Assembly: GCA_963663965.2 (NCBI GenBank)
Contig: CAXXFK010000041.1
Span: forward strand, 1-64,000
Direction of reading: 5' to 3'
Length of the DNA: 64,000 bases
DNA from: Sedimentisphaerales bacterium
GTDB lineage: Bacteria > Planctomycetota > Phycisphaerae > Sedimentisphaerales > SM23-30
The translations under genes and the position numbers were made by a program. The stretch's first letter is position 1. The number at the start of each line of letters is the position of its first letter. Below are positions 16,333 to 48,208 of the stretch, piece by piece. The notes beneath the pieces are model-generated. The model saw only the letters and a program-made list of their open reading frames with translations, had not been told where the DNA came from and did not search any database.

Positions 16333-19300
16333 ATGGCAAAAATCAGTAGTTTACGATCGAATATCGGTTCAGGTCTCTCAGATAAAGTTAAAATACCAAT
16401 CAATTCCTGCTTGGTATTAGAGCCTTTGGAACCGCGGTTGTTACTGGATGGCGCCATTCCGGCATTGGATCTGTTTGAGTATGTAAATGTAGGTCTGGGT
16501 ACCACCTATGCCGTAAATGATGTGGCGTTGGGGGCGGAAGGTGAAATTTTTGTAGCCGGTTCAGCCACCAACACCTCAGGAACGGTTAGTCAGGGCGATT
16601 TCAATCAGGTAATCCGTAACCACAGCGGCAGCCGGGATGGCTTTGTCGCCAGAATCACCGCAGATGGTCAGGGTGATTGGATCACCTTCCTGGGTGGAAG
16701 TGATACCGATGAGATCGATTTTATCAATATCGATACACAGGGCGCTATTTGGGTGGCGGGCGATACCACCTCCTATGAGGACTTCCCCTTTGATACCGGT
16801 CAACCCGTGGGGGGGCGGTTTGTCGCACAACTCAACAGTCAGGGGACGTTAGTGTGGGCTTCATCTCTGGGCGGTTATGAAGGCCCCGAAGTGGGCAACT
16901 GGTCCTATTCCACTATTGCCAATCAAATTCAGTTCGATCCCGACGGCTGGTTGGATATCTTTTCCTATATCCAGACCGAAACGGAAAACTATTATGGCGT
17001 GGCGAGTTTTAACAGTACCGGTACGATAGAGGAGATCGGCCATTTTAATTACGAATATCAGGACCTGGCCAATCCCAATATCCGTTTTGCCAAAGTTATG
17101 TCACCAAACCAGGTGCTAGCGGTGTCCCAATCGAGCTCCCCATACTCTTTTGATGTAATGCTGCTGGAGACCGACAGCCATACATCGACAGCAACCATGC
17201 CGGGATTTGTCCAGGAGGTAACTCTGGATAATCAGGGCAACCTGCTGGTAACCGGTTACAAAAATGAATATCCCGACGAAGATGGTTTTATCGCGAAGTT
17301 TGACAGTATGGGCGAGTTACTATGGACGGTTGATATGGGTGGCTCAAGCCGGGATCGATGCTATGCTATTGCGACCGACGAACAGGGGAATGTCTATTTT
17401 AATGGGTATAGTGAGAGTTGGTCCGATTTCCCTCTGGTGAATGCGCTGTCCCTTGACCAGACCAGTGCCAGTTTTTTAGGCGCCCTGTCTTCTGATGGTC
17501 AGATCCTCTGGAACACCAGACTGGGCCTGATCGATGGAAACTGGCTGGGTGCCCCAGGATTTGCGGGTGTGGATGCGGATGAAGAGGGTGTGGTTTATGC
17601 CGATACCAGTTACAATTCAGCAGCCCGGCAGACGGCGCTAATGGTTCACCGTATTACATTGAGTTCCGGTCCAACTTTGCCGGTGGCATCGTTGGATACC
17701 GATTTCATCTACGATGATTATGCCTATCTGAACGAAATAAACGAAGCCGGCTATCTGGATATTCGCTTTGAGGATACCGACTCCAAAACTGTAAACGGCG
17801 ATGAATTTGTCCTCAGTGGGCCCGGCGCCGAAAATGTTTCGATTAAAGGCAAACCCAGGCTCATCGATTCCGAAAACAACATCTATCGTTATACCCTGGA
17901 TGGCGATTTTGGCAGTGGCCCGGTGGTGATGGAATATGGGGCCAGTGGCTTTTCCGGTTCGGAAGGCCAGGGCAACATCGCGGCTTCCCAGACCTTCAGA
18001 GTGATCCCCGATATCGCCCCGTTACAATTCAGTATCAATACCAGTGAATTCGAATGGGACGATAGTGAACAGGAATTCATCTATGAAGGCGAAATCAGTA
18101 TCGGATTAATTCCATCCGAGGGATCAGCTTTCACCCCGGCCATAACGTTGGTTGGGGGCTCGCTGAGTGTCGATGAAGATGCCGTCTATGGCGAAGGGAC
18201 CGTCTGGACGACATTAACCGGTAACTCGATCAATCTCTTCCAGGGCAGTTTCGAGATCAAGCGGGGCCAGGCGCAGACCTATCTGTTGCAGGATAACCAT
18301 GTTCTGGATGACAGTGAGTTTCTTCTGGCCGGCCAGGATTATCAGTTCACCGCGTTCTCGCTGGCAACCGCCGGCCAGCTGCGGGCGCAGGGCGCCATCA
18401 ATTTATCCTCCAATCTGGGAGCCGTCCAATTGGCGGTCAGTGGCAATCACTGGATTACTTTTTCCGCCACTGGTATTGGTTTAACCGGCGGCACCTTGAC
18501 CTTGCCCAATGTCGACATCAACACGGAATACATGGAAATGAAGGCGGAAAGCCTGTCAGTGGAATATGTCGCGGCCACCCCGGCGTCTGGCGCCACTCCG
18601 GCCAAGCCGGATGCCTTGCGCTTTCGCGGCAAAGTCACGTTGCCAAGTGTCTTCGGCGCGACTGCGGATCTCACCCAGGATCTATTCGCCGGTACGGATG
18701 GCTATATCGAAGTAAACGCCAACGGTGAAATAAAATGGTATGGCAAATTGTCGATAGAGGAAATCGTCATTGTCCCGGACCTCTGGGAGATCAAAGAAGC
18801 CACCCTCGAACTGCGCGAAGGCACCGGTGGAACCATGGTTGTCGCGGGTAATGGCAAAGCCGTTGTGCCGCCCGGTATGGAAATTGTCTGCGGCCTGGGT
18901 TTTGTCAACGATCAGTTTAATTATATCCGGCTGGGAGTAGGGGATTTAAATCTACCCATTGGCACAACCGGCGCGTTTCTGCAGGAGATCAACGGTACGG
19001 TCAACAATCTGGCCGATCCCGATCCGATCAATATTTACTTTGGCGGCGGATTGGCTTTCACTGCCGGTCCCGAACTGGGGATTGCCCTGCCCGAATGGGC
19101 CGGCGGCGATTTAACCGGCCGCCTGGCCGAGTTTGGCGTCGAAGGTGGATTCACCATGTCAACACTCACCGGCAGCGGCACACTGAAAATGATTGGTGGA
19201 CTGGCAGAGGGGGCGGCCGTATCGACTCTGGACTGGGACAAGGGAACGCTGGATGCCAAATGCACTCTGACGGCGCTTAGCAACCTGGTTACCATCACCG

Positions 19301-21609
19301 GTTCCATGAAAGCGGATAAGGCCATGAATGTCAATGTGGTCGGTCAGGGTGTGGTAACCGTGCCCAGTGTCGTGCCCGTCTGGGGTGGCCGTCAGATTGC
19401 CAACGCCAACGTCATGATCGTTTATGTGAATGACGAAGCAGGCTCATACAGTAACGATTATGTGGCCGGTTGGGGGGAAACTGTTTTGTCGATTTTTGGT
19501 AAAGAACGTAAATTTACCACCGGGATCAGAGTCAATTTAGATGGCACCTGGTCCTTTCTGGGTGGCAAAACGGCTGCCCGGCTACAGGCCGGCCTTAGTG
19601 CGGCGCCTCCATCCGATGGCATTCTCAGACTGATGCTGGCCGAACCATTGGCCGATGCGGCTTATACCAACTCCGAGATGTTCTATGCCACAGAAGGACA
19701 GGAATGGCTGATGATCAACGCGCAGTGGGACAACGCCGCGGCGGGTGAGATTTCTCTGACCGATCCGAATGGCGTGGTCTATGATCTGGCCGCGATTACC
19801 AACAGTGATTTTATCGCAGTCGTTCCGGAATTGTCCGATGACACCACCACCACGTTATTCATTGAATCGCCCACCCCCGGAACCTGGACCCTGCAAGTGG
19901 CATCGGATGAACCCCTGGAAGGCTTGACCTTCGATGGCTATCAGGACACCACCCTGCCGCAATTGACTATCGATGAAATCAGTATCAATCCGTATAGTCA
20001 GTCCGGCGCCATTGCCTATTCCGGCGACTCCGATCTGACCGACTGCCAGATCACCTTTTATTACGATGATGATAACAGTGGCGCGGATGGAATATTGATG
20101 GGCCAGGCGGACAATACCGGGCAGTTCGACTGGGACACCTCCTCCGTCGCCGCCGGCGCCTATTATGTCTATGGCTTGATCAGCGATGGAAACAACATCC
20201 CCACGGCCAGCTATTATGATGAACCAATCGAAATCGAAGCGTCCCAGGCATTAACCGATATCTTGATCGGGACCGGGGCGGCCGGCAGGATCAGTTATAC
20301 CGATGCCGATAATACCCTGGTCACTGTCAGTCTCAAGGGAGATGGTGGCACATTACGGTTTACCGGTGATGATATTACCGCCACTGGAACAAAAAATGTG
20401 GTGGTAACCGGAACCAACCTGTTTTTACAGTCCATCGTTCTGGATGGTACCGGGATAGCCGCCTTGTCCATCGGCGCCAAAGGCGGCAGTGACAATGAGG
20501 CCACTATCGGCGCCATTACCGGGGGCGAAATCAAGTCCCTGTCCGGCAAGGGAGTCGTGCTGGCCGGTAACCTGCAAACCAGCGGCAGCCTGTCCACGCT
20601 GAGTTGGGGGGATCTGGGCGACAATATTACCATTGAAACCGGCCAGGCCGGCAGCGGTTTCAGTTTGAAGGCGGGGAATATCGGCGACAATGTCACCTTC
20701 GATATCGCCGATAGCATTAAATCCTTCTCCGCCAATACCTATGCCTCCGGCCGGGTTGATTGTGACAGCCTCGGCAAGTTTGCCATCAAATCCGGCCCGG
20801 TGGAGGTGGATATCACCACAGACAGTGGTGATGTCGGATCCGTCGGCAGCAGCGGCGATCTGCTGGGCAGTTTGACGGCCGCCGGCGAGATCAAAGCCGT
20901 GGCAGTTAAATCCGGCGCCTTGAAAGCCTCTCTGACCGCCACTGGCGCGGTGGGGAAAGTCTCGGCGCTGACCATTGAAGGCGCGACCCTGACTGCCCGC
21001 TCGGTGGGCTCGATTGCCGGCAAAGGGGATATCCTCGATCTGACACTGGTCACCACCGGCGGCGATATCAAATCCATCAAAGCCGCCGGCGACGTTGATC
21101 TGCAGGCCTCCATTGCCGGTTCGTTTGGCTCACTGGGAACCAAGGGGGATTTATCCGGTGTAATCCGTGCGGAAAACATGATTTCCGGTGTGTCGGCCGG
21201 TTCGATGTCAGCCATCCTGAGTGCCGGCGGCAATATCGGCAAGGTGTCTCTGAAAGGGGATATGACCGACAGCTGGCTCATGGCCGGACTGGATCTGGGC
21301 AGCGATCTGGTTTTCAGCAGTGATGATACTGGTTCCGGCGGCGATATCGGCTCGGTAGCGGTATCGGGCGCCTTCACCTCCAGCTATCTGCTGGCCGGCG
21401 CGTTACCGGAGGTAAGTCTGACCGCAGACAGCGCGTTAACCGCACCCTGGTTCGCCCCAACCGGCGCCATCGGCAGTGTTAAGTTTGGCCAGATCAATTA
21501 TACCAATGACGAACCATTCGGCCTGTTCGCCGCCATTGCGATCAAACCCTTCAAAGTGGGTAATGTTCTGGTTGAAAGTCGGGAGAAGTTTGAGATAACA
21601 GTGCAGTAA
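16333..21609 (+). CDS. Large extracellular LEPR-XLL protein with SBBP-type propeller repeats and C-terminal Gly/Ser-rich beta-solenoid
   Basis: LEPLEPRLLLD motif; DGFVARI...WITFLGGS and DGFIAKFD...GGSSRD repeats; 1758 aa. Confidence 0.8.
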   Translation: MAKISSLRSNIGSGLSDKVKIPINSCLVLEPLEPRLLLDGAIPALDLFEYVNVGLGTTYAVNDVALGAEGEIFVAGSATNTSGTVSQGDFNQVIRNHSGSRDGFVARITADGQGDWITFLGGSDTDEIDFINIDTQGAIWVAGDTTSYEDFPFDTGQPVGGRFVAQLNSQGTLVWASSLGGYEGPEVGNWSYSTIANQIQFDPDGWLDIFSYIQTETENYYGVASFNSTGTIEEIGHFNYEYQDLANPNIRFAKVMSPNQVLAVSQSSSPYSFDVMLLETDSHTSTATMPGFVQEVTLDNQGNLLVTGYKNEYPDEDGFIAKFDSMGELLWTVDMGGSSRDRCYAIATDEQGNVYFNGYSESWSDFPLVNALSLDQTSASFLGALSSDGQILWNTRLGLIDGNWLGAPGFAGVDADEEGVVYADTSYNSAARQTALMVHRITLSSGPTLPVASLDTDFIYDDYAYLNEINEAGYLDIRFEDTDSKTVNGDEFVLSGPGAENVSIKGKPRLIDSENNIYRYTLDGDFGSGPVVMEYGASGFSGSEGQGNIAASQTFRVIPDIAPLQFSINTSEFEWDDSEQEFIYEGEISIGLIPSEGSAFTPAITLVGGSLSVDEDAVYGEGTVWTTLTGNSINLFQGSFEIKRGQAQTYLLQDNHVLDDSEFLLAGQDYQFTAFSLATAGQLRAQGAINLSSNLGAVQLAVSGNHWITFSATGIGLTGGTLTLPNVDINTEYMEMKAESLSVEYVAATPASGATPAKPDALRFRGKVTLPSVFGATADLTQDLFAGTDGYIEVNANGEIKWYGKLSIEEIVIVPDLWEIKEATLELREGTGGTMVVAGNGKAVVPPGMEIVCGLGFVNDQFNYIRLGVGDLNLPIGTTGAFLQEINGTVNNLADPDPINIYFGGGLAFTAGPELGIALPEWAGGDLTGRLAEFGVEGGFTMSTLTGSGTLKMIGGLAEGAAVSTLDWDKGTLDAKCTLTALSNLVTITGSMKADKAMNVNVVGQGVVTVPSVVPVWGGRQIANANVMIVYVNDEAGSYSNDYVAGWGETVLSIFGKERKFTTGIRVNLDGTWSFLGGKTAARLQAGLSAAPPSDGILRLMLAEPLADAAYTNSEMFYATEGQEWLMINAQWDNAAAGEISLTDPNGVVYDLAAITNSDFIAVVPELSDDTTTTLFIESPTPGTWTLQVASDEPLEGLTFDGYQDTTLPQLTIDEISINPYSQSGAIAYSGDSDLTDCQITFYYDDDNSGADGILMGQADNTGQFDWDTSSVAAGAYYVYGLISDGNNIPTASYYDEPIEIEASQALTDILIGTGAAGRISYTDADNTLVTVSLKGDGGTLRFTGDDITATGTKNVVVTGTNLFLQSIVLDGTGIAALSIGAKGGSDNEATIGAITGGEIKSLSGKGVVLAGNLQTSGSLSTLSWGDLGDNITIETGQAGSGFSLKAGNIGDNVTFDIADSIKSFSANTYASGRVDCDSLGKFAIKSGPVEVDITTDSGDVGSVGSSGDLLGSLTAAGEIKAVAVKSGALKASLTATGAVGKVSALTIEGATLTARSVGSIAGKGDILDLTLVTTGGDIKSIKAAGDVDLQASIAGSFGSLGTKGDLSGVIRAENMISGVSAGSMSAILSAGGNIGKVSLKGDMTDSWLMAGLDLGSDLVFSSDDTGSGGDIGSVAVSGAFTSSYLLAGALPEVSLTADSALTAPWFAPTGAIGSVKFGQINYTNDEPFGLFAAIAIKPFKVGNVLVESREKFEITVQ

Positions 21610-29510: not shown

Positions 29511-30350
29511 ATGTCATCTTCACTACGAAGACTCAGAGCCAACCGTCGTAACGCCCAGAAATCCACCGGCCCCAAAACCCCCGAGGGCAAGGCCATCTCA
29601 TCCAGAAATGCCATCAAGCACGGCCTCAGCGGCCAGGATCCCGCCCACCTCATTGTCCCCGGCGAATCCGAACTCACCTACCTCGAATTCCGCGCCGCGC
29701 TGTTACAAGACCTCAAACCAACGACTTATCTCCAACGCCACATCGCCGACCAGATCGTCTCGGCCGCCTGGCGTTTGGAACGCCTCGGCCGCATCGAAGC
29801 CGAGATGATCGACGCCCGCGTCTATAAACTCCGCCTCACCAACGAAGAAATCCGCAAAGACACCGTCATCGACCAGCCCTTCGCCCACTCCAGCATCTAC
29901 TTACCACGTCACAACGAAGTCGGTACCGCCTTCACCCTCGAAGTCCCCGCCTTCAACTGCCTGGCCCGCTACGAAGCCCACCTCAACCGTACCTTCCAGG
30001 CCAATCTTAAGCTCCTGCAACAGTTGCAATTACAACAAAAACCAAACGAACCCAATGCCTACCCGCCTGAGTACCCATTTCCCGACTTACCCCGCGTCCA
30101 CATTCCCGACCCACCCAGAATCCCCACGCACCCCAGCGAAGCCAAATTGGCCCCCGAATACATCAAAGACCGACTCCCCGAATTGATGAAAGACCACAGC
30201 GTAACTGACGACCAGGTCTTCAGTTACGCCTGCAACCGCTACGAAGCCCTCAACACCTTCTCCCAGCAGAACGGCGAAGAAGCCCTCCACGCCCTCGGCA
30301 TCCCCACCAAACCCCCGGCCGATATCCCCATCAAGGAGGTTAAGAAATAA
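29511..30350 (+). CDS. Conserved hypothetical protein with NAQKSTGPKTPEGK...NAIKHG N-terminus (HGGxSTG-related motif)
   Basis: AGGAGG SD; 279 aa; WRLERL..IE and RYEAHLNR helices; Pro-rich tail with NEPN. Confidence 0.8.
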   Translation: MSSSLRRLRANRRNAQKSTGPKTPEGKAISSRNAIKHGLSGQDPAHLIVPGESELTYLEFRAALLQDLKPTTYLQRHIADQIVSAAWRLERLGRIEAEMIDARVYKLRLTNEEIRKDTVIDQPFAHSSIYLPRHNEVGTAFTLEVPAFNCLARYEAHLNRTFQANLKLLQQLQLQQKPNEPNAYPPEYPFPDLPRVHIPDPPRIPTHPSEAKLAPEYIKDRLPELMKDHSVTDDQVFSYACNRYEALNTFSQQNGEEALHALGIPTKPPADIPIKEVKK

Positions 30351-30775: not shown

Positions 30776-32206
30776 TTGTTTAATGCCTTAACAGACAAAT
30801 TGAGCAGCGCATTTCGTAACCTGACCGGGCGTGGTCGGATTACTGAAAGTAATGTTCAGGATGCCATCAGTCAGGTCAGAACCGCCCTGCTGGAAGCGGA
30901 TGTAAATTACAAGGTGGTTAAGGATTTCTGTGAATCGGTTACCCAGAAAGCTTTAGGCGCTGAAGTCATTAAAAGTGTTCAGCCGGGTCAGATGATGGTT
31001 AAAATCGTCAATGACGAATTAATCAATCTGATGGGGCCTGTGGATAACGAAATTTACTATGTTTCACCGGGACCAACGGTTATTTTGCTGGCGGGTCTTC
31101 AGGGAAGTGGTAAAACCACTACCGCGGGTAAACTGGCTCGTTATCTGGAAAGCAAGGGCCGCAAGCCATTGTTAGTCGCTGACGACCTACAGAGACCGGC
31201 GGCTATCGATCAGTTAAAAACGCTGGGTGAACAATTAAATATCCCGGTTTACAGCGAATCGAGTAAAGATGCCGTTATGGTAGCCCGTAACGGTGTTAAA
31301 TTCGCGCGCGAAAAAGGGCGCGATACGGTCGTTCTGGATACCGCGGGCCGATTGCATATCGACAATGAGTTGATGACCGAATTGAAGCAGGTCTGTAACG
31401 CCGTTCAACCGCATCAGATTTATCTGGTGTGTGATTCCATGACCGGCCAGGATGCTGTTAACAGCGCCAAAGAATTCAATGAGCAGCTTGAATTGGACGG
31501 CGTCATATTAACCAAACTGGATGGCGACGCGCGCGGTGGCGCCGCCCTGTCAGTGAAAGCGGTCACCGGCAAGCCGATTAAATTTATTGGCGTCGGCGAA
31601 AAGCTGGATAAACTGGAAGAGTTTCATCCGGATCGAATGTCCAGCCGTATTCTTGGCATGGGCGACATTGTTACCCTGGTCGAAAAAGCCCAGGAACAGG
31701 TCAGTGAAGAAGAAGCCCAGAAAATGCAGGAGAAAATGGCCAAAGGGACCTTTACCTTTGATGATTTTCTCAAGCAGATGCAGATGATGCGTAAAATGGG
31801 CGGCTTCAAAGATGTATTGAAATTGATCCCGGGTATGGGCAAGGCGATGTCCGGTTTTAATATTGATGACAAGGAGATCGCCCGGATTGAAGCGGTCGTT
31901 CACTCGATGACAAGGGATGAACGAAATGATCCTGACATTATTAATTTGTCCCGCCGCCGCCGAATCGCGCGTGGCAGCGGGATGGATATTGGCATAGTCA
32001 ACGGCTTGATTAAGACCTTCGAGCAGTCGCGCCAGATGATGCGGGCGATGAGTGGCTTGGGACCCCGTGGCAAGTTGCAGGCGATGTCCCAGATGGGAAA
32101 TATGCTTGAACAGGGTGGGGGGCGGATGCCCGGTAAAATCAAGATGCGTTCTAAGCGAAAAAAGGTGGAACGCAAACCGAGACCTAACAAGAAGAAAAAA
32201 CGGTAA
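30776..32206 (+). CDS. ffh: Signal recognition particle protein
   Basis: [33 protein letters not shown]-domain SMT..ER...[14 protein letters not shown] start. Confidence 0.97.
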
Positions 32207-32224
32207 TCCCGTCTGGAAGAAAAA

Positions 32225-32572
32225 ATGACGGATATCGATTTTTGCCGAACGATTGAAGCATACCTGGCCTATGTGGGGCGTTTTTGTGGCCATGCCTTCG
32301 GACGGCAATTTCGACAGCAGTTTGCCGATCATCGCGGCACGGCTGAATTGGCGATGTTGGCATCGCCCAGCCGAGAGGAATATGAGAGTTTCGTTAGAGT
32401 AGTGGCTTCGATGACTCCGGAAGAAAAGTCATCGCCTGAAACGCTCAATGATCTGGATATACAGGAAATTGCCCGGCGGGCAAATGTAGAACCCGCTCTG
32501 GCAGGTTTGTTTGTTAATGGATTTGTTCTTGCTCGCAAGAAGGCCGGATGGTCCGGATCTTCAAGTGAGTAA
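32225..32572 (+). CDS. Hypothetical protein resembling an isolated SRP54/Ffh M-domain
   Basis: VVASMTPEEKSSPETLNDLDIQEIARRANVEPALAGLFVNGF aligns by eye with Ffh [42 protein letters not shown]. Confidence 0.65.
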   Translation: MTDIDFCRTIEAYLAYVGRFCGHAFGRQFRQQFADHRGTAELAMLASPSREEYESFVRVVASMTPEEKSSPETLNDLDIQEIARRANVEPALAGLFVNGFVLARKKAGWSGSSSE

Positions 32573-32618: not shown

Positions 32619-32870
32619 GTGGTAAAAATCAGACTGAAACGCATGGGAAGACGTCATCGTCCGTTTTATCGTATTAATGCCATGGATTCCCGCTGTCCTC
32701 GTGACGGGCGTGTGATTGAACAATTGGGTTATTATGATCCGATTTGCAAAGATTCTGAAAAGCAGGTTAACCTGAAAGAAGAAAGAATTCGCTATTGGTT
32801 GAATGTTGGCGCTGAACCCAGCGATACCGTTCGCAATATTCTGAAGCGAAAAGGAATCCTGAACGGCTAG
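32619..32870 (+). CDS. rpsP: 30S ribosomal protein S16
   Basis: [25 protein letters not shown]. Confidence 0.97.
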
Positions 32871-32881
32871 AAGATGACCGT

Positions 32882-33601
32882 ATGAGGTTTGATATCCTGA
32901 CTTTGTTCCCGCGAATGTTCGAGGGTGTTTTTGGCGAATCGATAGTCAAGCGCGCCTGTGAGAATGCTCTGGTGGATATAAAGCTGACCAATATTCGGGA
33001 TTTTGCCCGGGATAATTATGGCAGTGTGGATGACAAGCCTTATGGCGGTGGGCCCGGCATGGTCATGATGTGTCAGCCCATTTTTGATGCCGTTGCGGAG
33101 GTATGCCGCGTTGGCGAACCGCCGGATGAAGTTATCCTGATGACGCCTCAAGGTGTGCCCTTGGATCAGAAACTGGCGGCGCAGCTGGCTTCCAGAAAAC
33201 GCCTGATATTAATCGCCGGCCATTATGAAGGATTTGATGAGAGAATTAGAGATGGACTGGCAACGCTGGAAATTTCACTGGGCGATTTTGTCCTGAGTGG
33301 AGGAGAAATTCCAGCCATGGCTCTTGTCGATGCTGTTATCAGGTTGTTGCCTGGCGCTCTGGGCGATGATCATTCCAGCGTGGAAGAATCCTTTAGTCAT
33401 GGTTTGCTGGAGTATCCGCATTATACCCGACCGGCGGAATATGCCGGTATGAAAGTGCCGGAGATATTGTTAAGCGGCCATCATAAAAAAATTGAAGAAT
33501 GGCGCCACGAACAAGCGCTTTTACGAACCCGGCAGAGACGTCCGGATTTGTTAAATCAGTCAAACCAAAAGCATATTCAAGCTTTTAAAGAAAATAACTA
33601 A
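32882..33601 (+). CDS. trmD: tRNA (guanine37-N1)-methyltransferase
   Basis: [43 protein letters not shown]. Confidence 0.97.
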
Positions 33602-33633: not shown

Positions 33634-33993
33634 ATGATATCTGCATTAATTGAGACAGTACAGGCCAAGCACTTGAAAAAAGATCCTCCCAGGTTTAATG
33701 TGGGGGATACAGTGGATGTCCATGTGAAGATTGTTGAAGGCGATAAAACCCGCGTTCAGGTCTTCAATGGTACGGTGATTGCCCGCAAAGGGAGCGGGAT
33801 TACTGAAGTATTTACTGTTCGCCGGATTGTGAATAACGAGGGCGTGGAACGTATTTTCCCGGTTCATTCCCCCAATGTGGTTAAGGTTGAAGTGCTTCGC
33901 TCCGGCTTCATCCGTCGCAGTAAACTCTATTTCCTGCGTAACCGTACCGGTAAAGCGGTTCGTTTACGTGACCGGCGTGTTGCCCGGAAATAA
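33634..33993 (+). CDS. rplS: 50S ribosomal protein L19
   Basis: F.VGDTV.VHVKIVEG, GVERIFPVHSP, RRSKLYFLR. Confidence 0.97.
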   Translation: MISALIETVQAKHLKKDPPRFNVGDTVDVHVKIVEGDKTRVQVFNGTVIARKGSGITEVFTVRRIVNNEGVERIFPVHSPNVVKVEVLRSGFIRRSKLYFLRNRTGKAVRLRDRRVARK

Positions 33994-35318: not shown

Positions 35319-35335
35319 ATTGATTGGAGGCATCC

Positions 35336-36313
35336 ATGAGTGCTGGCAAAAAAGGCAAAACGACTCCCGATACATCAAAAGTTGAAAAAAACAGGCCCGA
35401 TAAACAGAAGCCTGAATTGACGCAAACCACGGATCAAGTCTCCTATGCCCATGCGATGATGGAATCGGCGTTGTCTATCATTCGAAAATGTAATTTAAAA
35501 GCATTGCTGATTTATGTCGATGGATTGGCCAGTTTGGATGAGTTGGAATTGCTGGATTTCAAAGCATCAGTACAAATTATTTTGATTGCCCGTAATGACA
35601 GCGTCTATGAAAAAGCATTGGAATATACAGATAAAGTTGTCCGGGTGCCACAGGTAAGTCTGACGCGAATCAGCCAAATCAAACTGGCGGTGATGTTGAG
35701 TTTTTCCAATCGATTCCTCGAGCCTGGCGATAAATTTATTTTTCTGGCAGGCTTGCCTGATGAACCCTTGGATACCATGATGATTTTGGAGGTCGGACGT
35801 GAATATGAAATGTTTCAGTCGGTCGATCAGCCTCCATTAACCGAGCATATACGACGGGCGGTCTTTGAACGGGTATTTAGCCTCGCACTGGAACTGGCAG
35901 CTGAAGGCCGTGAGGGAAAACCGATCGGGGTAATTTTTGTCCTGGGGGATTCCAATTCGGTGATTGAAAATTCCCGGCAAATGATCATGAATCCTTTCAA
36001 AGGGTATCCGGAATCCGAGCGTAATATTCTGGATGATCAGATGAAAGACACGATCAAAGAGTTTTCCGCCATAGATGGAGCGATTATAATTAAGGGGACT
36101 GGCGTTGTCGTGTCTGCGGGTACATACCTGTTACCTCGATTAGTCTGTGAAGATTTGCCTCAGGGTCTGGGGGCTCGTCATGTAGCCGCTGCCGCTATTA
36201 CTGCAGCCACGCGCAGCATTGCCATTTCAATCAGCGAATCGACCGGAACGGTTCGAATCTGGCGCCAGGGCAAAATGATCACAGAAATTGAAAAGGCCAA
36301 ACATAAAGATTAA
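35336..36313 (+). CDS. Diadenylate cyclase (DisA_N domain, DacZ-like architecture)
   Basis: EGREGKPIG, IKEFSAIDGA, GLGARH.AA motifs; ATG after GGAGG. Confidence 0.8.
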   Translation: MSAGKKGKTTPDTSKVEKNRPDKQKPELTQTTDQVSYAHAMMESALSIIRKCNLKALLIYVDGLASLDELELLDFKASVQIILIARNDSVYEKALEYTDKVVRVPQVSLTRISQIKLAVMLSFSNRFLEPGDKFIFLAGLPDEPLDTMMILEVGREYEMFQSVDQPPLTEHIRRAVFERVFSLALELAAEGREGKPIGVIFVLGDSNSVIENSRQMIMNPFKGYPESERNILDDQMKDTIKEFSAIDGAIIIKGTGVVVSAGTYLLPRLVCEDLPQGLGARHVAAAAITAATRSIAISISESTGTVRIWRQGKMITEIEKAKHKD

Positions 36314-40036: not shown

Positions 40037-40065
40037 TTGACGCTGTGATATATATATGATATATT
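40037..40065 (+). promoter_or_regulatory. Putative sigma70 promoter of rex/hyd operon
   Basis: TTGACG-17 nt-TATATT. Confidence 0.5.
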
Positions 40066-40109
40066 GTGTTATCGATAATACATTATCGATAACAGTGAGG
40101 ATTAAAAAT

Positions 40110-40757
40110 ATGAATCAGAAAACAAAATCAATATCAGAATCAAGTGTAAAGCGATTACCGGGATATTGGCGCTACCTGAATAACTTAAAAAGAGCAGGGC
40201 GGATAGCGGTATCCTGTACCCGTATTGCTCAGTCTTTGAATCTGACAGCGATACAGGTCCGTAAGGACTTGGCCGCCACTGGCATTATCGGACGACCTAA
40301 AACCGGGTACTCAGTGAATGATTTGGTTGAACATATCGAAAAATTTTTAGGATGGCACAATACCCGTGAGGCAATTCTGGTAGGGGCCGGCCATCTGGGG
40401 CGCGCACTGTTAGGGTATAAGGGATTTGAAGACTATGGCCTGAACATTGTCTGTGCCTTCGATCAAGATTCAAAATTATTCGGTACAAATTACCAGGGTA
40501 AAGAAATCCTGCCCGTTGAAAAATTACCAGATCTCGTCAAACGGATGCAAATCCAGATTGGGATCATTACCACGCCGGCCCAGGTGGCCCAGAATATTGC
40601 CGATCAAATGATAGCTGGTGGGATTATTGCTATTTGGAACTTTGCACCGGTAAAAATCGATGCTCCCTCAGAGATTATTATCGAAAATATGGAATTATCG
40701 GCCAGTCTGGCGGTATTGTCGCACCGACTGGAAACCTCCCAAACAGATAGCTTATAG
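40110..40757 (+). CDS. rex: Redox-sensing transcriptional repressor Rex
   Basis: KRLP.Y.RYL, QVRKDL, GYSV, LVGAGHLGRAL, IWNFAP. Confidence 0.95.
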   Translation: MNQKTKSISESSVKRLPGYWRYLNNLKRAGRIAVSCTRIAQSLNLTAIQVRKDLAATGIIGRPKTGYSVNDLVEHIEKFLGWHNTREAILVGAGHLGRALLGYKGFEDYGLNIVCAFDQDSKLFGTNYQGKEILPVEKLPDLVKRMQIQIGIITTPAQVAQNIADQMIAGGIIAIWNFAPVKIDAPSEIIIENMELSASLAVLSHRLETSQTDSL

Positions 40758-40852
40758 AAGATGATATTTAATTGTTGTTGTTTTTGATTAGCGAACTTTT
40801 ATATATACTATATAGATAGATATACTAATAAATAATGCAGGAGTAAGCCGCA

Positions 40853-41356
40853 ATGCCAACTTCCATCGAAACAAACCGAACCGCTCGCAATTTTCAGAAT
40901 ATATGCGAGATTCTCGAAAGATACAACTATGATCCAGCTAAAATCATTCCGATTTTGCAGGAAGTCCAGGAAGCCTATCGATATCTGCCGCAGGAAGTGA
41001 TGACCTATGTGGCCACTTCCCTGGCAATTCCGCCTGCCCGGGTGTTTGGCATAGCCACTTTTTATTCACATTTTGCCATAGAACCTAAAGGGCAATATGT
41101 AATCAAATTGTGTGATGGAACCGCCTGTCATGTCCGTGGCTCCAATCCAATTCTTGATGCGATTCGCACCCATTTAAAGCTGGATGAGAAAAACCGTACC
41201 ACGCCAGATATGTTATTTACCGTAGAAACCGTTTCTTGTCTGGGGGCGTGTGGCCTGGCTCCGGTTATGTTGATTAATGATGATGTTTATGGTCAGATCA
41301 CCCCTGAAAAAGCAGTTGAACTGGTTAAGGCAATCCAGGAAAGCGAGTCTAAATAA
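40853..41356 (+). CDS. hydC: Electron-bifurcating [FeFe]-hydrogenase gamma subunit (NuoE-like)
   Basis: ATFYSHF, CDGTACHVRG, CLGACGLAP [2Fe-2S] motifs. Confidence 0.88.
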   Translation: MPTSIETNRTARNFQNICEILERYNYDPAKIIPILQEVQEAYRYLPQEVMTYVATSLAIPPARVFGIATFYSHFAIEPKGQYVIKLCDGTACHVRGSNPILDAIRTHLKLDEKNRTTPDMLFTVETVSCLGACGLAPVMLINDDVYGQITPEKAVELVKAIQESESK

Positions 41357-43263
41357 TGAAAACTTCAACAAAAATCGATCTGAATGTCATAAAAAAAGAA
41401 TATGCTGAGTTCAAGACTAATCTCTCCCGCAGAATTGTAATCTGCACGGGAACCGGATGTGTTGCCAATGGCTCAATCAAAGTTCGTGATGCTTTCGCCA
41501 GGCAGATTATCGATCGGGGATTGCCGATTTCAGTCTACGAAAAACGAGAGAACGAAAACTCTTCACATGCGGTTCTGGTATCGGGGAGTGGTTGTCAGGG
41601 ATTTTGCCAGATGGGGCCTTTGGTGACAATTGAGCCGGATGGCATCCTTTATTGCAAAGTACAGGAATCGGATGTGGCTGAAATAGTCGAACACACTTTG
41701 ATTGGCCACCAAACCATAGAACGTCTGCTTTACCACGATCCCAATCAAAAAACGGTTTGTAAAGGCGCGGCGGAGATACCGTTTTATGCCAAACAACAAC
41801 GAACCGTATTACGCGATTGTGGTATTATTGATCCCGGTAATATCGCTGAGTATATCTATCTGGATGGTTATACCGCAGCAGAAAAGGCGTATAGTATGAT
41901 GACTTCCAAGGATGTCTGTGATACGATTGCCCGTTCCGGCATGCGTGGCCGAGGGGGAGGGGGATTTCCAACCGGTCGAAAATGGGAGCTGACACGAGTT
42001 CAACTAGGTCCGAAAAAGTATGTGATTTGCAATGGTGATGAAGGGGATCCCGGCGCTTTTATGGATCGCTCTGTGATGGAGGGTAATCCACATAGTGTGA
42101 TTGAAGGAATGATGATTGCGGCTCGTGCCGTTGGTGCGGATGAAGGCTATGTTTATGTCAGGGCAGAATATCCACTCGCCGTTCGTCGTGTTCGCCAGGC
42201 AGTTGAAGACGCATTGCGTCTGGGCATACTGGGGAATAATATTTTTGGTTCGGGCATGGCCTTTAACCTACATGTCATGGAAGGGGCTGGCGCCTTTGTC
42301 TGTGGAGAGGAAACGGCGTTGATCGCGTCAATTGAAGGCAAACGTGGTATGCCAAATCCCAAACCTCCTTTTCCGGCGCAAAGTGGATTGTGGAGCAAAC
42401 CAACGGTTATTAATAATGTAGAAACATTGGCTTCGATTCCTTTAATCATCAGAAAAGGACCGGAACAATATTGTCAGGTGGGTACTCAGGGCTCCCCGGG
42501 AACAAAAACCTTTGCCCTGACCGGACATGTTGTCAATACCGGTCTGATCGAGGTACCGCTAGGAACACCATTGCGGGAAATCATATATGACATTGGCGGG
42601 GGGGTAACGGATGATTTTGGCAATCCGATTGATGAACCATTTAAAGCGGTACAGATCGGCGGACCATCCGGAGGATGTCTGACTCAGGATCATCTGGATC
42701 TGCCATTGGATTTCGATTCGCTTTGTTCCGTTGGCGCAATGGTTGGTTCCGGTGGTCTGGTAGTGATGAACCAGAATACTTGCATGGTAAAAATCGCTCA
42801 TTTCTTTATGCAGTTTACCCAGAATGAATCTTGTGGAAAATGCGTTTTATGCCGCGAAGGTACTCGGCAAATGCTTCGGTTGCTGGAAGATATTATGGAA
42901 GGAAGAGCGGATGAGAACACGCTGAAACTGCTGGAGCAACTGGCTGGTGTCGTTGGGAAAGGTTCCTTGTGCGGATTAGGAAAAACGGCGCCAAGTCCGG
43001 TTTTATCGACATTACGCTATTTTCGTGATGAATATGAGGCGCATGTTTACCAAAAACGTTGTCCATCCGATCAATGCCAGGCGCTTCGACGTCCTGAAAT
43101 AATTGCGGCTTTATGTAAAGGATGTACAGCGTGTATGCGAAAATGTCCGGTGGGCGCGATCAGTGGTAAGCCACGAGAAGTACATGTTTTAGATGCGGAG
43201 AAATGCATAAAATGTGGCGCTTGTGCGGCGGCATGTAAATTTGAAGCAATTAAAGGAGTCTGA
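41356..43263 (+). CDS. hydB: Electron-bifurcating [FeFe]-hydrogenase beta subunit (NuoF-like)
   Basis: GRGGGGFPTG, NGDEGDPGAFMDR, GAFVCGEETAL, ESCGKC..CREG, C-terminal 2x[4Fe-4S]. Confidence 0.9.
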   Translation: MKTSTKIDLNVIKKEYAEFKTNLSRRIVICTGTGCVANGSIKVRDAFARQIIDRGLPISVYEKRENENSSHAVLVSGSGCQGFCQMGPLVTIEPDGILYCKVQESDVAEIVEHTLIGHQTIERLLYHDPNQKTVCKGAAEIPFYAKQQRTVLRDCGIIDPGNIAEYIYLDGYTAAEKAYSMMTSKDVCDTIARSGMRGRGGGGFPTGRKWELTRVQLGPKKYVICNGDEGDPGAFMDRSVMEGNPHSVIEGMMIAARAVGADEGYVYVRAEYPLAVRRVRQAVEDALRLGILGNNIFGSGMAFNLHVMEGAGAFVCGEETALIASIEGKRGMPNPKPPFPAQSGLWSKPTVINNVETLASIPLIIRKGPEQYCQVGTQGSPGTKTFALTGHVVNTGLIEVPLGTPLREIIYDIGGGVTDDFGNPIDEPFKAVQIGGPSGGCLTQDHLDLPLDFDSLCSVGAMVGSGGLVVMNQNTCMVKIAHFFMQFTQNESCGKCVLCREGTRQMLRLLEDIMEGRADENTLKLLEQLAGVVGKGSLCGLGKTAPSPVLSTLRYFRDEYEAHVYQKRCPSDQCQALRRPEIIAALCKGCTACMRKCPVGAISGKPREVHVLDAEKCIKCGACAAACKFEAIKGV

Positions 43264-43264
43264 T

Positions 43265-45304
43265 ATGATTCAGAATGCAAATAACAATACCGTGACGGTG
43301 AATGGCAAAGAAATAACGATTGGCGATGAGCCCAATCTGCTGGAATTGATTCGTAAGGCCCATATCGATTTGCCAACATTTTGCTATCATAGTGAATTGA
43401 GTGTCTATGGCGCCTGTCGGTTATGTATGGTGGATATCAAAGGGCGTGGATTGGTAACCTCTTGTTCCACGCGACCCGAACCCGGCATGGTCATTAAGAC
43501 TCATACCGAAGAATTGCGTGAAATGCGTAAGATTATCATTGAGTTGCTGCTGGCCAATCATGATAATTCCTGCCCAACCTGTCCCAAAAACCGTTCCTGT
43601 CAACTGCAAAGTCTTGCCGCTCGATTGGGAATTAACGAAATACGCTATGGACGAACGCATCAGCCTGCACCTGTGGATGAAAGCACCGTAGCGCTGGTAC
43701 GCGATCCTAACAAGTGCGTACAGTGCGGTGATTGTGTACGTTTCTGCCATGAAGTACAGGGTATCGGTGCCATCGACTTTGCCTATCGTGGAGCCGGAGT
43801 ATCCGTAATGCCGGCTTTTGGAAAAGAACTGAATCAGGTGGAATGTGTCTATTGTGGTCAGTGTGCGCGCGTATGTCCAACTGGCGCGATAACTGTGAAA
43901 ACAGAAAAAGATCCGGTGTGGTCTGCAATTAACAGCTCTGACATAATGGTTGTCGCACAAATCGCTCCGGCAGTACGCGTGGCGTTAGCGGAACATTTTG
44001 GCTTGGAGCCGGGAACGGTTGCGACCGGTCAGATCGTTGCCGCAATGAAACAGATAGGTTTTGATAAAATTTATGACACTTCATTTGCCGCTGATTTGAC
44101 GGTAATTGAGGAAGGTGCCGAATTTATCAAGCGATTTGTTTCTGGTGAGACTCTGCCCCAATTTACATCCTGCTGTCCAGCCTGGGTCAAATATGCCGAA
44201 CAGTATTATCCCAGTCTGCTCAATCATTTATCCAGTTGTCGTAGTCCCCAGCAGATGTTTGGTTCTCTGGCACGTGAAATACTACCAGGAATGCTGAAAA
44301 TTGAACCGGAACAATTAACAATCGTTTCGATCATGCCTTGTTCTGCCAAAAAATATGAAGCACGACGGGAAGAATTCAAACGAGATAACCGGCAGGATGT
44401 TGATTATGTGTTGACGACCCAGGAACTGGCCGAAATGATAGAATCGGCCGGTATCGATTTTACTCAATTAGAGCCTGAATCGCTGGATATGCCCATGGGC
44501 TTTAAGACCGGAGCCGGAGTCATCTTCGGAACCAGTGGTGGTGTTAGCGAAGCGGTTTTGCGATATGCGGTGGAACAGGTAAACCAGGTAAAACTGGATG
44601 CTTGTGATTTTCGTGAAGTACGTGGTGAAGAAAACATGCGTGAAGCCCGTATTATGCTGGGCGGCAAAGAACTTAGAATTGCCATTGTTCATGGCCTGAA
44701 AGAAGCAGGCAAGTTGGCCGAACGCGTTACCAGAGGGGATTGTCCTTATCATCTGGTCGAGGTCATGAGTTGCCCGGATGGATGCGTGGGAGGGGCCGGT
44801 CAGCCAGTCCCCAAAAACCGCTCTGTTCGTCAAAAACGCACACGTGGCCTGTATGATACCGATAAAATGATGCAGGTGCATAAGAGCCAGGATAATCCCA
44901 TGATTCGTAAAGTCTATGAAGAGACTCTGGGGGAAGCCGGCAGCCATAAAGCGCATAAATTATTGCACACCCACTATCAGTCGCGTCGACGAATTGAAGG
45001 TGAGACACTGGATGTAATCACCGGAAGCCAGAACCAAACGTTAAATGTCAGTGTTTGTGTTGGCACCAGCTGTCATGTTCGAGGTTCCCAGTCGATTCTG
45101 AGGCGTTTGATCGACTATGTCGAGTCAAATGGTTTGTGCGATCGTGTGCAGGTTGAAGCAACGTTTTGCCTTGAACGGTGCGGTCAAGGTCCCAATATCA
45201 TGATTGGCGATACGATTATTGAGCACTGTACCCCCGAAAAAGCCATTGAATCCCTGCAATTACGGCTTAAAGAGCATGGTGTAGTCTCTATCCAAAGCAG
45301 TTAA
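43265..45304 (+). CDS. hydA: [FeFe]-hydrogenase catalytic alpha subunit (group A3) with C-terminal thioredoxin-like [2Fe-2S] domain
   Basis: H-cluster motifs TSCCPAW, MPCSAKKYE, EVMSCPDGCVGGAGQP; N-terminal F-clusters; CVGTSCHVRG tail. Confidence 0.93.
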   Translation: MIQNANNNTVTVNGKEITIGDEPNLLELIRKAHIDLPTFCYHSELSVYGACRLCMVDIKGRGLVTSCSTRPEPGMVIKTHTEELREMRKIIIELLLANHDNSCPTCPKNRSCQLQSLAARLGINEIRYGRTHQPAPVDESTVALVRDPNKCVQCGDCVRFCHEVQGIGAIDFAYRGAGVSVMPAFGKELNQVECVYCGQCARVCPTGAITVKTEKDPVWSAINSSDIMVVAQIAPAVRVALAEHFGLEPGTVATGQIVAAMKQIGFDKIYDTSFAADLTVIEEGAEFIKRFVSGETLPQFTSCCPAWVKYAEQYYPSLLNHLSSCRSPQQMFGSLAREILPGMLKIEPEQLTIVSIMPCSAKKYEARREEFKRDNRQDVDYVLTTQELAEMIESAGIDFTQLEPESLDMPMGFKTGAGVIFGTSGGVSEAVLRYAVEQVNQVKLDACDFREVRGEENMREARIMLGGKELRIAIVHGLKEAGKLAERVTRGDCPYHLVEVMSCPDGCVGGAGQPVPKNRSVRQKRTRGLYDTDKMMQVHKSQDNPMIRKVYEETLGEAGSHKAHKLLHTHYQSRRRIEGETLDVITGSQNQTLNVSVCVGTSCHVRGSQSILRRLIDYVESNGLCDRVQVEATFCLERCGQGPNIMIGDTIIEHCTPEKAIESLQLRLKEHGVVSIQSS

Positions 45305-45323
45305 TTAATTCTATTTGTTGATT

Positions 45324-47084
45324 ATGAAAGAATTACAGTCAGACAGTTTGGTGATAACCAGTCAGGCTCAATGCCGCGACTGCTATCGATGCTTGCGAGT
45401 GTGTCCTGTCAAGGCGATTCGCCTCAAAGAAGGACAGGCCTCCGTTGATGACCAACTCTGTATTGGCTGTGGTACCTGCATTCGTGAATGCCCTCAACAC
45501 GCCAAACAATATCGTCGAGATTTAGACAAAGTCATCGAAATGATTCGTCAAGGGGAAAAAGTGGCTGTATCAATTGCCCCATCAATGGCTGTCGTCTGGT
45601 CAGATTGGCGCGTCGGCCGTCTGGCTTCAGCATTGCGGCGATGCGGATTCCAGTTTATTGCAGAAACAGCCTATGGCGCCAGTCTGGCTGCCCGGCTTAC
45701 TCAAGATTATTTTGACGATCATTCGCCACAAGGCGATATTATGGCGGCTTGTCCGGCGGTCGTTACGTATATCGAAAAATACTTTCCGGAAATGACTGAC
45801 CGGTTATTACCAATACCTTCGCCCATGATTGTCCATGGCCGTTTTTTAAAAGATTATCTTGGTCCGGACTGGAAAGTGGTCTTTATTGGTCCCTGTGTGG
45901 CTAAAAAAGCGGAAGCCGGGCGTTCTGAATATGCCGGAGTAATTGATGCGGTAATCACTTTTGAAGAACTACAGGATTGGTTAAATCAGGAAGGAATCGA
46001 TCTGAAAAACTGTGAAGAAAGCCCATTTGATCAGCAGGTACCGGGCCCGAGCCGCAATTATCCCTTGCCGGGCGGCGCACTGGCCAGCGCCCTGTTACCT
46101 TCAGACTTGTTGTCATCCAATCATATTGCCATTAGTGGCGGAGATGCACTGAATGAAGCGCTGGTGGCATTGAAAGATCAAGCGTTGCCGGTTTTGCTGG
46201 AACCCCTGTTTTGCCAACATGGTTGTATTGATGGTCCCGCGTTAGGAACTGAAGATAATCTGCTGGTACGCCGTGCGCGTTTGCTGGATTATACTCAGTC
46301 AAAACATGAAGAAAGTTCCTTACCAGATAATTATCATAAATACGAATCAGTTGCCTATCATTCACAAAATCATGACCAACCACAGATTACCGAAGATCAA
46401 ATTCGTGCCATTCTGGAACAAACCGGTAAAATCCGTCCTGAAGACCAATTAAACTGTGGCGCTTGCGGTTATAGCAGTTGTCGAGAAAATGCGATAGCCG
46501 TTATCCGCGGGATGGCTGAGATTGAAATGTGTATGCCCTATATGAGGCGAATGGCTGAACGGAGGACCGACCGGATCATCGAAACGAGTCCCAACGGTAT
46601 CATCATCCTGGATCACGATCTGAAAGTGATCAGTATGAATCCATCGTTTCAAACTATGTTCATGTGTTCCGGTTCATTCCTGGGACGCCAGATCGCAGAA
46701 TTGATCGATCCTGAGCCATTTGAACGACTGGTGGCGGGTGAAGAGATTGTCGAATCCATTCAAAAGTATGAATCGTATCGATTGATTTGTCAACAGATTT
46801 GTTACGCGTTGCGGGAAGAACGGCAATACGTCGGTATATTCGTGAATATAACTTCCAGTCAACTGAATCAGAAGAAACTGGACAGTTTACGCGCCCAGAC
46901 CATTCTACAGGCACAGGATTTATTAAAGCATCAAATTGAAATGGCACGTCAAATCGCGGGCTTCCTGGGAGAAAGCACCGCCCAGGGAGAGCAATTGGTT
47001 GAAAACCTGATGAAACTGGCCCAGGATGAACCATCGCGTCATGAACGGAAAGCGTCATTATGGGATATCTACACTTCGAAGTAA
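45324..47084 (+). CDS. hydS: Putative sensory [FeFe]-hydrogenase (group C, HydS-like) with PAS domain
   Basis: Variant motifs AACPAV, GPCVAKKAE, FCQHGCIDG; NCGACGY FeS domain; IIETSPNGIII PAS. Confidence 0.82.
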   Translation: MKELQSDSLVITSQAQCRDCYRCLRVCPVKAIRLKEGQASVDDQLCIGCGTCIRECPQHAKQYRRDLDKVIEMIRQGEKVAVSIAPSMAVVWSDWRVGRLASALRRCGFQFIAETAYGASLAARLTQDYFDDHSPQGDIMAACPAVVTYIEKYFPEMTDRLLPIPSPMIVHGRFLKDYLGPDWKVVFIGPCVAKKAEAGRSEYAGVIDAVITFEELQDWLNQEGIDLKNCEESPFDQQVPGPSRNYPLPGGALASALLPSDLLSSNHIAISGGDALNEALVALKDQALPVLLEPLFCQHGCIDGPALGTEDNLLVRRARLLDYTQSKHEESSLPDNYHKYESVAYHSQNHDQPQITEDQIRAILEQTGKIRPEDQLNCGACGYSSCRENAIAVIRGMAEIEMCMPYMRRMAERRTDRIIETSPNGIIILDHDLKVISMNPSFQTMFMCSGSFLGRQIAELIDPEPFERLVAGEEIVESIQKYESYRLICQQICYALREERQYVGIFVNITSSQLNQKKLDSLRAQTILQAQDLLKHQIEMARQIAGFLGESTAQGEQLVENLMKLAQDEPSRHERKASLWDIYTSK

Positions 47085-48208
47085 CCGCGCGTCAACGCAA
47101 TAAAGGGCACGGCCTGGTCTGTGGTGATGTCTGGTCCGAACGGAGGACTCCCTTTGCGACAACGGTTATATGTGCCGATGGTATCGGTTCGGGAACCAAG
47201 GCTCATATTGCCGCGACCTTGTGTGTGAGCCGGCTGGATAACTTATTGAATAGCCAGATGTCATTACGGGAGGCCTTTATCCGGGTGGTCCGGACAATGA
47301 ATCAATGGCGGTCCCCACAGGAACCTTATACCGCATTTAGTGTCGCGCGCGCGTTGAATGATGGCCGATGCACGATTTTGAGTTACGACGCTCCCGGCGC
47401 CACCTTGTTGAAAGGGCGGGAGTGGTCTATAATACCCAGACGTGAATTATATGTTGAACAGGTTCAGGTGTTTGAATCGGTATGTCATCTTTCGCCAGGA
47501 GATGGATTGCTTCTGGTCAGTGACGGCATTACCCAAGCCGGATTGGGGTGTGGATTGAAACAGGGCTGGGAGGAATCGGGAGTTCGACAGTTTTCCATGA
47601 ACTGGGTACGAACCGGTCACAAGATGACGGGATTGCCGGATGCCATTATGGAGGAAACGGATCGTATAGCCAACTATGATGTTCGCGATGATCGTACTGT
47701 GTTGCTTTTACGGTGTCGGCGGGGGACGGTGGTTAATATTATGACCGGTCCACCGGGGCAACCGGGACATGACAAGAAGGTTGTTGAACAGTTTTTAAGA
47801 CAGGGCGGCCTGACAGTCGTTTGTGGCGCGACAACGGCTAAAATTGTCGCTCAGTATCTGAATCAGAAATTGACAATTCCTGCCAATGAAGATTCCATGG
47901 TTGCGCCGCCGCGTTACGAGATTAATGGTATTGATCTGGTAACCGAGGGTGCTGTCACATTAAATCAGCTGTACCATATCCTTGACGCCGATCCATCCGA
48001 TCTGCGGGAAATCAATGGGGTAACCGAATTATTCTATCTGGTGCAGGCGGCCGATCGTATTAATCTGACCGTTGGTTTAAGCGCCAATCCAGCCAATCAT
48101 GATATTTCATTTCGACAGCGCGGGCTGATTCCCAGGGATCAGATTATCCGGTTATTGATCGAAAAGTTTAAGAAAATGGGGAAAATGGTTTATGTAAAAT
48201 ATGAGTAA
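47060..48208 (+). CDS. SpoIIE/PP2C-like Ser/Thr phosphatase associated with sensory hydrogenases
   Basis: VCGD, ADGIGSG, VSDGITQAG, DD.TV, VCGATT, IDLVTEG. Confidence 0.85.
   Translation: MGYLHFEVTARQRNKGHGLVCGDVWSERRTPFATTVICADGIGSGTKAHIAATLCVSRLDNLLNSQMSLREAFIRVVRTMNQWRSPQEPYTAFSVARALNDGRCTILSYDAPGATLLKGREWSIIPRRELYVEQVQVFESVCHLSPGDGLLLVSDGITQAGLGCGLKQGWEESGVRQFSMNWVRTGHKMTGLPDAIMEETDRIANYDVRDDRTVLLLRCRRGTVVNIMTGPPGQPGHDKKVVEQFLRQGGLTVVCGATTAKIVAQYLNQKLTIPANEDSMVAPPRYEINGIDLVTEGAVTLNQLYHILDADPSDLREINGVTELFYLVQAADRINLTVGLSANPANHDISFRQRGLIPRDQIIRLLIEKFKKMGKMVYVKYE

Follow-up and report, generated by a model that had tools for sequence, protein, structure and literature searches.

The closest described counterpart of the gene reported here is found in mitochondria. 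mL105, an Ffh homolog that consists of the M domain only, is located at the tunnel exit of ciliate and algal mitoribosomes and in Polytomella adjoins a putative insertase density (PMC7326499, PMC9576764). The protein belongs to MAP67. According to PMC8321541, MAP67 is proposed to have arisen from a copy of ffh whose N and G domains were lost, can coexist with full Ffh as in Goniomonas, and is further proposed to bind signal-like peptides. The E. coli M domain, when isolated, is reported to migrate together with the 50S subunit and to limit membrane-protein synthesis, with ffs present (PMC2921155), and another study reports that Ffh's M domain in the SRP touches mainly 23S rRNA, via MH3 and MH4 (PMC4737761).

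Here we describe a stand-alone M-domain paralog in a Sedimentisphaerales bacterium. Like mL105 and MAP67 it has no NG domain, mitoribosome chains are its next-best fold match (Z 7.1 to 7.7), and an ffh duplicate is the proposed source in both cases. In contrast to MAP67, which is eukaryotic, nuclear-encoded and targeted to the mitochondrion, the paralog is part of a bacterial operon. Compared to mL105 it is shorter (about 105 versus about 150 modelled residues), has no counterpart of the tunnel-entering C-terminal helix and is known here from its gene and a predicted model. A sequence-level match to mitoribosome chains was absent among the PDB hits at E values up to 10; the paralog is probably not a MAP67 member, and an independent origin is assumed. 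Literature searches, which left most subscription journals uncovered, returned no paper on this Sedimentisphaerales family.

A gene between ffh and rpsP

The window, i.e. the whole analyzed stretch of DNA, comprises 64,000 nucleotides. On its forward strand ffh (30776..32206) encodes an intact SRP protein of 476 aa with N, G and M domains, in which [11 protein letters not shown] is retained. The paralog (P0001, 32225..32572, forward strand) starts 18 nt past the ffh stop codon, encodes 115 aa from ATG to TAA with a conserved core from about residue 9 to 105, and ends 46 nt ahead of rpsP (32619..32870), which was assigned to ribosomal protein bS16 by a family match. Next on the same strand are trmD (32882..33601) and rplS for ribosomal protein bL19 (33634..33993), both named from sequence and usual gene order alone. 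A scan for promoters and terminators gave counts no higher than the shuffle level. Just upstream of ffh, a 279-aa ORF with a proline-rich middle (29511-30350) had no Pfam match at E 1, and two large ORFs of 1758 aa (16333-21609) and 782 aa (9840-12188) had none at E 1e-5. Downstream of the operon, the window contains a DacZ-type diadenylate cyclase with DAC and DacZ_P domains (35324-36313), and the region 40056-48208 encodes a Rex-like regulator, three genes of the bifurcating [FeFe]-hydrogenase type, a PAS-containing hydrogenase and a SpoIIE-type phosphatase.

The paralog has one match in its own genome, and a database search identified homologs of 100-115 aa with 50-66% identity. A family profile of 54 rows matched 2450 proteins of 55-203 aa at E <= 0.01, the best 120 of which were listed. 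The gene has four hosts in culture, namely Sedimentisphaera salicampi (WP_085754425), S. cyanobacteriorum, Limihaloglobus sulfuriphilus (SMSP2_01170) and Anaerohalosphaera lusitana (STSP2_03080), and is annotated as hypothetical in each of them. There was no NCBIfam match near a cut-off, with weak signals to HP1233_fam (15 of 54 sequences, best E 7.6e-4) and to ffh (13 of 54). In a protein atlas the family falls into unnamed Planctomycetota clusters, in one of which 17% of the members carry SRP_SPB.

In the class sample, the gene is present in 27 of 27 Sedimentisphaerales genomes and in none of 174 other Phycisphaerae. A larger sample of the order contained it as one copy each in 233 of 251 genomes, among them 167 of the 170 high-quality ones, and covering all eight families. 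Strong matches in 401 genomes of the phylum were limited to the nine Sedimentisphaerales genomes, and 14 of the 21 weak matches examined were Ffh. Five of the 18 paralog-negative genomes of the order were inspected. Four of these also lack the Ffh M domain, with rpsP near a contig end in three of them and missing from one, and therefore look like assembly gaps. In G596, which is 99% complete, rpsP follows ffh after 135 nt with no paralog in between, and this is a true loss. The gene order is well preserved. Of 56 distinct loci, 51 have ffh no more than 600 nt upstream, with a median gap of about 18 nt, and 50 have rpsP no more than 600 nt downstream; in two exceptions ffh is about 1.4 kb upstream. 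An earlier sequence-only reading of this DNA had suggested a check of ffh-ORF-rpsP synteny in Phycisphaerae; the order of genes is indeed conserved, but the paralog is specific to Sedimentisphaerales and not a gene of the class as a whole. In all loci, the paralog is a separate frame after the stop codon of ffh, without the fused NG GTPase domain of full Ffh (TIGR00959). No NG-fused or longer relative was found among 7998 candidates of 204-2000 aa, which is a weak test, and no full-coverage fusion among 37 representatives. Three long representative matches (P0037, P0042, P0051) are apparently chance matches in repetitive proteins, and P0041, P0024 and P0052 are apparently chimeric or mis-started gene calls.

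The ORF could in principle be a decaying leftover of a partial ffh duplication or the shadow of an antisense ORF (31550-32332), and the missing gene in the complete genome G596 would fit such a scenario. We consider this highly improbable, as the gene is intact in nearly all high-quality genomes and in each of the eight families, eight positions are invariant in 157 aligned sequences, and dN/dS ranges from 0.04 to 0.38 in the 10 of 946 pairs with pS < 0.36. For the 77 pairs with pS < 0.6 the median is 0.36 and the maximum 0.77, values that are affected by saturation. Judged from these selection data, decay or a shadow ORF seems effectively refuted. At 41 of 56 loci the antisense register is open over the initial 108 nt, an observation that says nothing for or against a shadow ORF. 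The median pairwise identity is 48% for the paralog, 65% for the M part of Ffh and 77% for its NG part. The ORF is a real gene that is vertically inherited and under purifying selection.

Relationship to the Ffh M domain and remodelled surfaces

Several lines of evidence connect the protein to the M domain of its neighbour. BLASTP aligned ORF residues 59-105 without gaps over 47 residues to Ffh 374-420 (28% identity, E 3e-4), which confirms the register of the alignment made by eye in the sequence-only reading (offset 315). Pfam SRP_SPB (PF02978) recognized residues 50-89 with an E value of 0.0044 and a score of 17.8 bits, below the gathering cut-off of 27 bits; 12 of 15 homologs matched the same model (best E 2.7e-5). 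A comparison of the family profile with an Ffh-M profile using hhalign gave a probability of 93.6% (E 2.1e-7) over 52 columns, residues 49-100. The AlphaFold2 model is all helical (pLDDT 77, pTM 0.71), with pLDDT values of 91-96 for residues 51-100, 48-69 for residues 21-50 and 48-56 for residues 21-40. Foldseek placed SRP54/Ffh in the top five rows, yet none with E < 0.03. In a wide structural search, 2ffh_A ranked first (Z 10.8, rmsd 3.5, 95 aligned positions) followed by 4xco_D (Z 10.3), covering residues 7-112 of the paralog. All top 12 rows were SRP or mitoribosome chains, the latter from algae, ciliates and apicomplexans (8a22_Ub, Z 7.7; 7pkt_S, 7.7; 9i05_AI, 7.4; 6z1p_AT, 7.1), and the first other row had a Z of 4.9. 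We infer that these four chains are mL105, from search rows that give entry titles only. Such Z values are common among helical bundles according to the search tool, but as sequence, profile, fold and gene position agree, we accept that the protein is an Ffh M-domain paralog by homology and predicted fold, as the sequence-only reading had claimed.

The paralog shares with the M domain of Ffh/SRP54 (PF02978; 2ffh, 4xco) the predicted fold and the core residues MT..E(K/R)..P and IA. The core, residues 49-100 (32369..32524), includes E52, M63, T64, E67, K68, L74, I82, A83, F96 and F/Y100, and the helix equivalent to alphaM1 (residues 10-18, 32252..32278) reads TIEEYL in the family compared to TFDDFL in Ffh, with Y13 and L14 nearly invariant. 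In contrast to Ffh, the protein has no NG domain, no GM linker and no Met-rich C-terminal lid helix, and is acidic instead of basic (mean net charge of the whole domain -3.3). The methionine content is 2.2% versus 11.6% in the Ffh M domain.

The helix-turn-helix that binds SRP RNA in Ffh corresponds to residues 74-88 (32444..32488), where Ffh S392-R396 and G400-G402 align with L77-E81 and R85-N87. None of the 157 aligned paralogs retains the RNA motif R..RI[AS].G, and the mean net charge of this segment is -1.5 compared to +4.7 in Ffh. The sequence-only reading had proposed that SRRRR and GSG were replaced by acidic DLDIQE and RAN; the loss of the motif holds throughout the family, but the acidic character does not, because position 78 is mostly Q (133/157) and position 81 often R or K (64 and 32). 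The position of Ffh G400 is occupied by a bulky D or R (98 and 41 of 157). We take S377, R393, R396 and G400 to be SRP-RNA contacts within the motif SM/SRxxRIAxGxG, as in the E. coli M-domain/4.5S structure; literature searches for residue-level RNA contacts gave no result. All four residues are kept in 33 of 33 Ffh proteins of Sedimentisphaerales, whereas the paralog has mostly I/A/V, Q, R/K/D/E and D/R at the respective positions.

Furthermore, much of the signal-peptide site has disappeared. In M. jannaschii the GM linker contributes 24% and the C-terminal helix 17% of the peptide-burying surface (PMC4468861; for the anatomy of the groove see also PMC2568955). Where the last helix would line the groove, at about residues 103-111 (ungapped register, +/- 1), the residues are polar, basic and variable; hydrophobic residues are conserved in alphaM1 and the last helix (I10, Y13, L14, V17, M44, L45, I95, F96, Y100, L102). 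The finger loop has been replaced by G.Q(F)R.QF.D..G..ELAML..P within a remodelled region with two predicted short helices (residues 19-48, 32279..32368), in which R30, F33, G38, L45 and P48 are present in 157/157 and E41 and L42 in 156/157 sequences. A further pair specific for the paralog, N98-G99 in the last helix (32516..32521), occurs in 157/157 and 156/157. Residues 19-38 have a mean net charge of +3.35 (range -3 to +7) and residues 102-115 of +2.69. By its sequence, the protein lacks what defines a functional M domain of Ffh, namely RNA motif, Met-rich groove, lid and linker; both the SRP-RNA and the signal-peptide function look eroded, and a new surface appears to be conserved.

Other M-domain-only genes in Planctomycetota and the SRP context

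Genes for M-only proteins are also present in other Planctomycetota. Among the 401 genomes of the phylum, a second PF02978 match was detected in 18 of 19 listed genomes of family f75, in 11 of 11 of family f43 and in a few others. At 10 of 10 fetched f75 loci, rpsP is next downstream of an M-only protein of 195-216 aa; the fetched DNA contains no ffh, although it reaches less than 2 kb upstream at two of these loci, and full Ffh is encoded elsewhere in five of five f75 genomes tested. The f75 model matches 2ffh at Z 10.1, and hhalign of the Sedimentisphaerales family profile in the f75 comparison (A2-A4) gave 94.8% over 89 columns. A P(K/R)NRLP motif is conserved at the C-terminus of the f75 proteins (L077-L086). 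Five f43 genomes and one f116 genome (L107-L111, L118) encode M-only proteins that are about 200 aa long and have a conserved C-terminal helix pair, with DUF6576 in the one that was scanned (L109); the f43 copies carry the same insertion as their own Ffh. In G549 (L117), a 149-aa duplicate with a nearly intact RNA motif is located upstream of ffh; it is recent and sister to the Ffh of its own genome, with a support of 99. G470 (L119) has an isolated, diverged M-domain copy of 109 aa, and in G510 (L087) a 230-aa frame at the edge of a contig has an M-like end. An f43 genome with 8% contamination (G490:C5, L106) contains a diverged second ffh of full length, 45% identical to the window Ffh.

These genes resemble the Sedimentisphaerales paralog in that a stand-alone M domain exists beside full Ffh, and the RNA motif is eroded in f75 and partly in f43. 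Unlike the paralog, they have longer C-terminal extensions, are closer to Ffh and pass the Pfam cut-off, and the R30/G38/E41/N98 motif is absent from all of them. At least the G549 copy is of independent origin, and the f43 genes probably are as well. A quick tree did not reject a grouping of the paralog with Ffh of its own order (p-AU 0.415), and two quick trees grouped it with f75 with supports of 48 and 80 under a long-branch warning, the second one with G470M left out and the rows thinned to 51 of 85. The stem branch of the paralog family is very long (3.47 changes per column).

The paralog coexists with a complete SRP. The genome of the window encodes SRP RNA (72 bits), YidC and, among three SRP-GTPase matches, Ffh and a probable FtsY. 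SRP RNA (RF00169) is above the cut-off in 41 of 41 Sedimentisphaerales genomes, which rules out that the paralog compensates for a lost RNA. Trigger factor is not replaced either, since tig is intact and above the cut-off in 59 of 61 genomes of the order, and in 58 of 61 of the class. The window genome itself contains only trigger factor fragments with stops and frameshifts (L269, G000:C30:275918-276816), and relatives of the two genes just downstream were matched in single frames at 61-74%; the broken gene is either a pseudogene or a local assembly error. RimM (TIGR02273) was not found in 41 Phycisphaerae genomes, with or without the paralog, which excludes a replacement of this factor; the control matched in 10 bacteria, and the operon runs from rpsP to trmD without rimM in between.

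We also inspected ribosomal proteins around the exit tunnel. No Sedimentisphaerales-specific extension of uL24 or uL29 was seen by eye in 21 loci of the order and 26 others. In 18 of 18 readable loci of the order (22 examined), three residues are inserted into the tunnel hairpin of uL22 (e.g. L191, G000:C28:565259-565576), at a site that reads GP.(I/M)KR in other Phycisphaerae and that presumably belongs to the stretch where deletion of MKR in E. coli affects macrolide action and stalling. A different 3-residue insertion is present in three of 30 phylum loci (L254, L262, L264). A link of the insertion in the order to the paralog is unsupported, because G596 retains this insertion and four f75 genomes are without it.

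A candidate factor at the ribosomal exit

We tentatively favour the idea that the paralog is an RNA-free accessory factor at the 50S exit, similar to mL105, because of the mL105 precedent, the ribosomal operon, the attachment of the f75 genes to rpsP and the basic conserved region. In this scenario, a duplicated 3' portion of ffh would have been fixed in the ancestor of Sedimentisphaerales. The copy would have retained the rigid core of the M domain but shed the face for SRP RNA and most of the groove for peptides, and the former finger loop would have given rise, together with the last helix, to a new conserved surface. The basic region around R19/R27/R30/R37, N98-G99 and the basic tail could mediate docking at or near the 50S exit tunnel, where the protein may tune how nascent chains are reached by SRP, trigger factor or translocon or, alternatively, help ribosomes to dock at the membrane.

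A role at the 50S exit is in line with the mitoribosome chains as the matches next after Ffh/SRP54, with the position of mL105 and the behaviour of the isolated E. coli M domain in PMC2921155, and with a single-copy gene that is placed in a ribosomal-protein operon and mostly followed by rpsP. The f75 genes have even retained rpsP at all 10 loci with full ffh elsewhere, and both conserved ends of the paralog are basic on average. However, the helix-turn-helix that matches the rRNA-contacting MH3/MH4 of Ffh, as described in PMC4737761, is acidic, the overall charge is unlike that of a typical ribosomal protein, and the protein is without the C-terminal segment with which Ffh and mL105 reach into the tunnel. 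Every mitoribosome chain is outscored by Ffh, and Z values of 7 to 8 may reflect a common helical-bundle arrangement. Furthermore, uL24 and uL29 have no order-specific extension, the insertion of uL22 is present in the paralog-less G596 but not in f75, trigger factor is intact in most genomes of the order, G596 manages without the gene, and the location after ffh may only mark where the duplicate arose. It is also conceivable, if somewhat unlikely, that the paralog represents the own mL105 of free-living bacteria beside a complete SRP, and that the M-only proteins, which Planctomycetota would have produced several times, are living intermediates of the mitochondrial route from Ffh to a ribosomal protein.

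Two close rivals of a 50S-exit factor have to be considered, each of which we regard as unlikely in its own right. The paralog might bind Ffh itself, with its acidic helix-turn-helix paired to the basic RNA-binding helix or the C-terminal tail of Ffh, and thereby might stabilise RNA-free Ffh or tune GTPase turnover. YlxM of Firmicutes is the analogue invoked for such a modulation of the SRP cycle; it was not found in PMC8881573. The tight spacing to ffh at 51 of 56 loci and the complementary charges of the two segments speak for an Ffh-binding modulator, and the divergence of the paralog tracks that of Ffh (Spearman 0.74 with NG, 0.65 with M), which is explained by shared descent. On the other hand, ffh is separated by about 1.4 kb in two genomes, the f75 analogue is detached from ffh, and Ffh of Sedimentisphaerales keeps every RNA-binding residue. 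Ffh tails of basic character are also widespread among Planctomycetota that lack the paralog, and persist in G596; as most of 20 tails, 19 of them from outside Sedimentisphaerales, are basic, the tail was rejected as a specific partner. No more probable is a reuse of the M scaffold elsewhere, e.g. in ribosome assembly or with an order-specific partner via R30, Q32, F33, G38, E41, N98 and G99. The strongest conservation at residues that Ffh does not have, the very long stem branch and the apparent erosion of both ancestral binding functions would fit such a new role, but no partner or pathway gap was found: RimM is missing regardless of the paralog, and Sedimentisphaerales or the window genome have trigger factor, YidC, FtsY and SRP RNA.

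The main idea of the sequence-only reading, an RNA-independent chaperone or decoy for signal peptides, here taken to include transmembrane helices, has become weaker and seems less likely than these rivals, in our opinion distinctly improbable. It would be supported by the hydrophobic residues conserved in alphaM1 and the last helix and by the peptide binding proposed for MAP67 in PMC8321541. However, the protein is poor in methionine, linker and lid are absent, the last helix has a variable stretch of polar and basic residues where it would line the groove, and the invariant polar motif in the former finger loop is ill-suited to a promiscuous groove.

The only M-only precedent that we found in print is mitochondrial mL105/MAP67, which is proposed to have originated by duplication and NG loss. 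With a bacterial example that has four hosts in culture and one naturally occurring loss, this step becomes testable. Furthermore, the bacterial SRP is seen as a fixed set of Ffh, FtsY and one RNA, and an RNA-free M-domain paralog that is under selection in a whole order points to an additional targeting component or regulator. If the paralog binds neither the ribosome nor Ffh, it would still be a clean marker gene for Sedimentisphaerales and an example of the reuse of the M domain.
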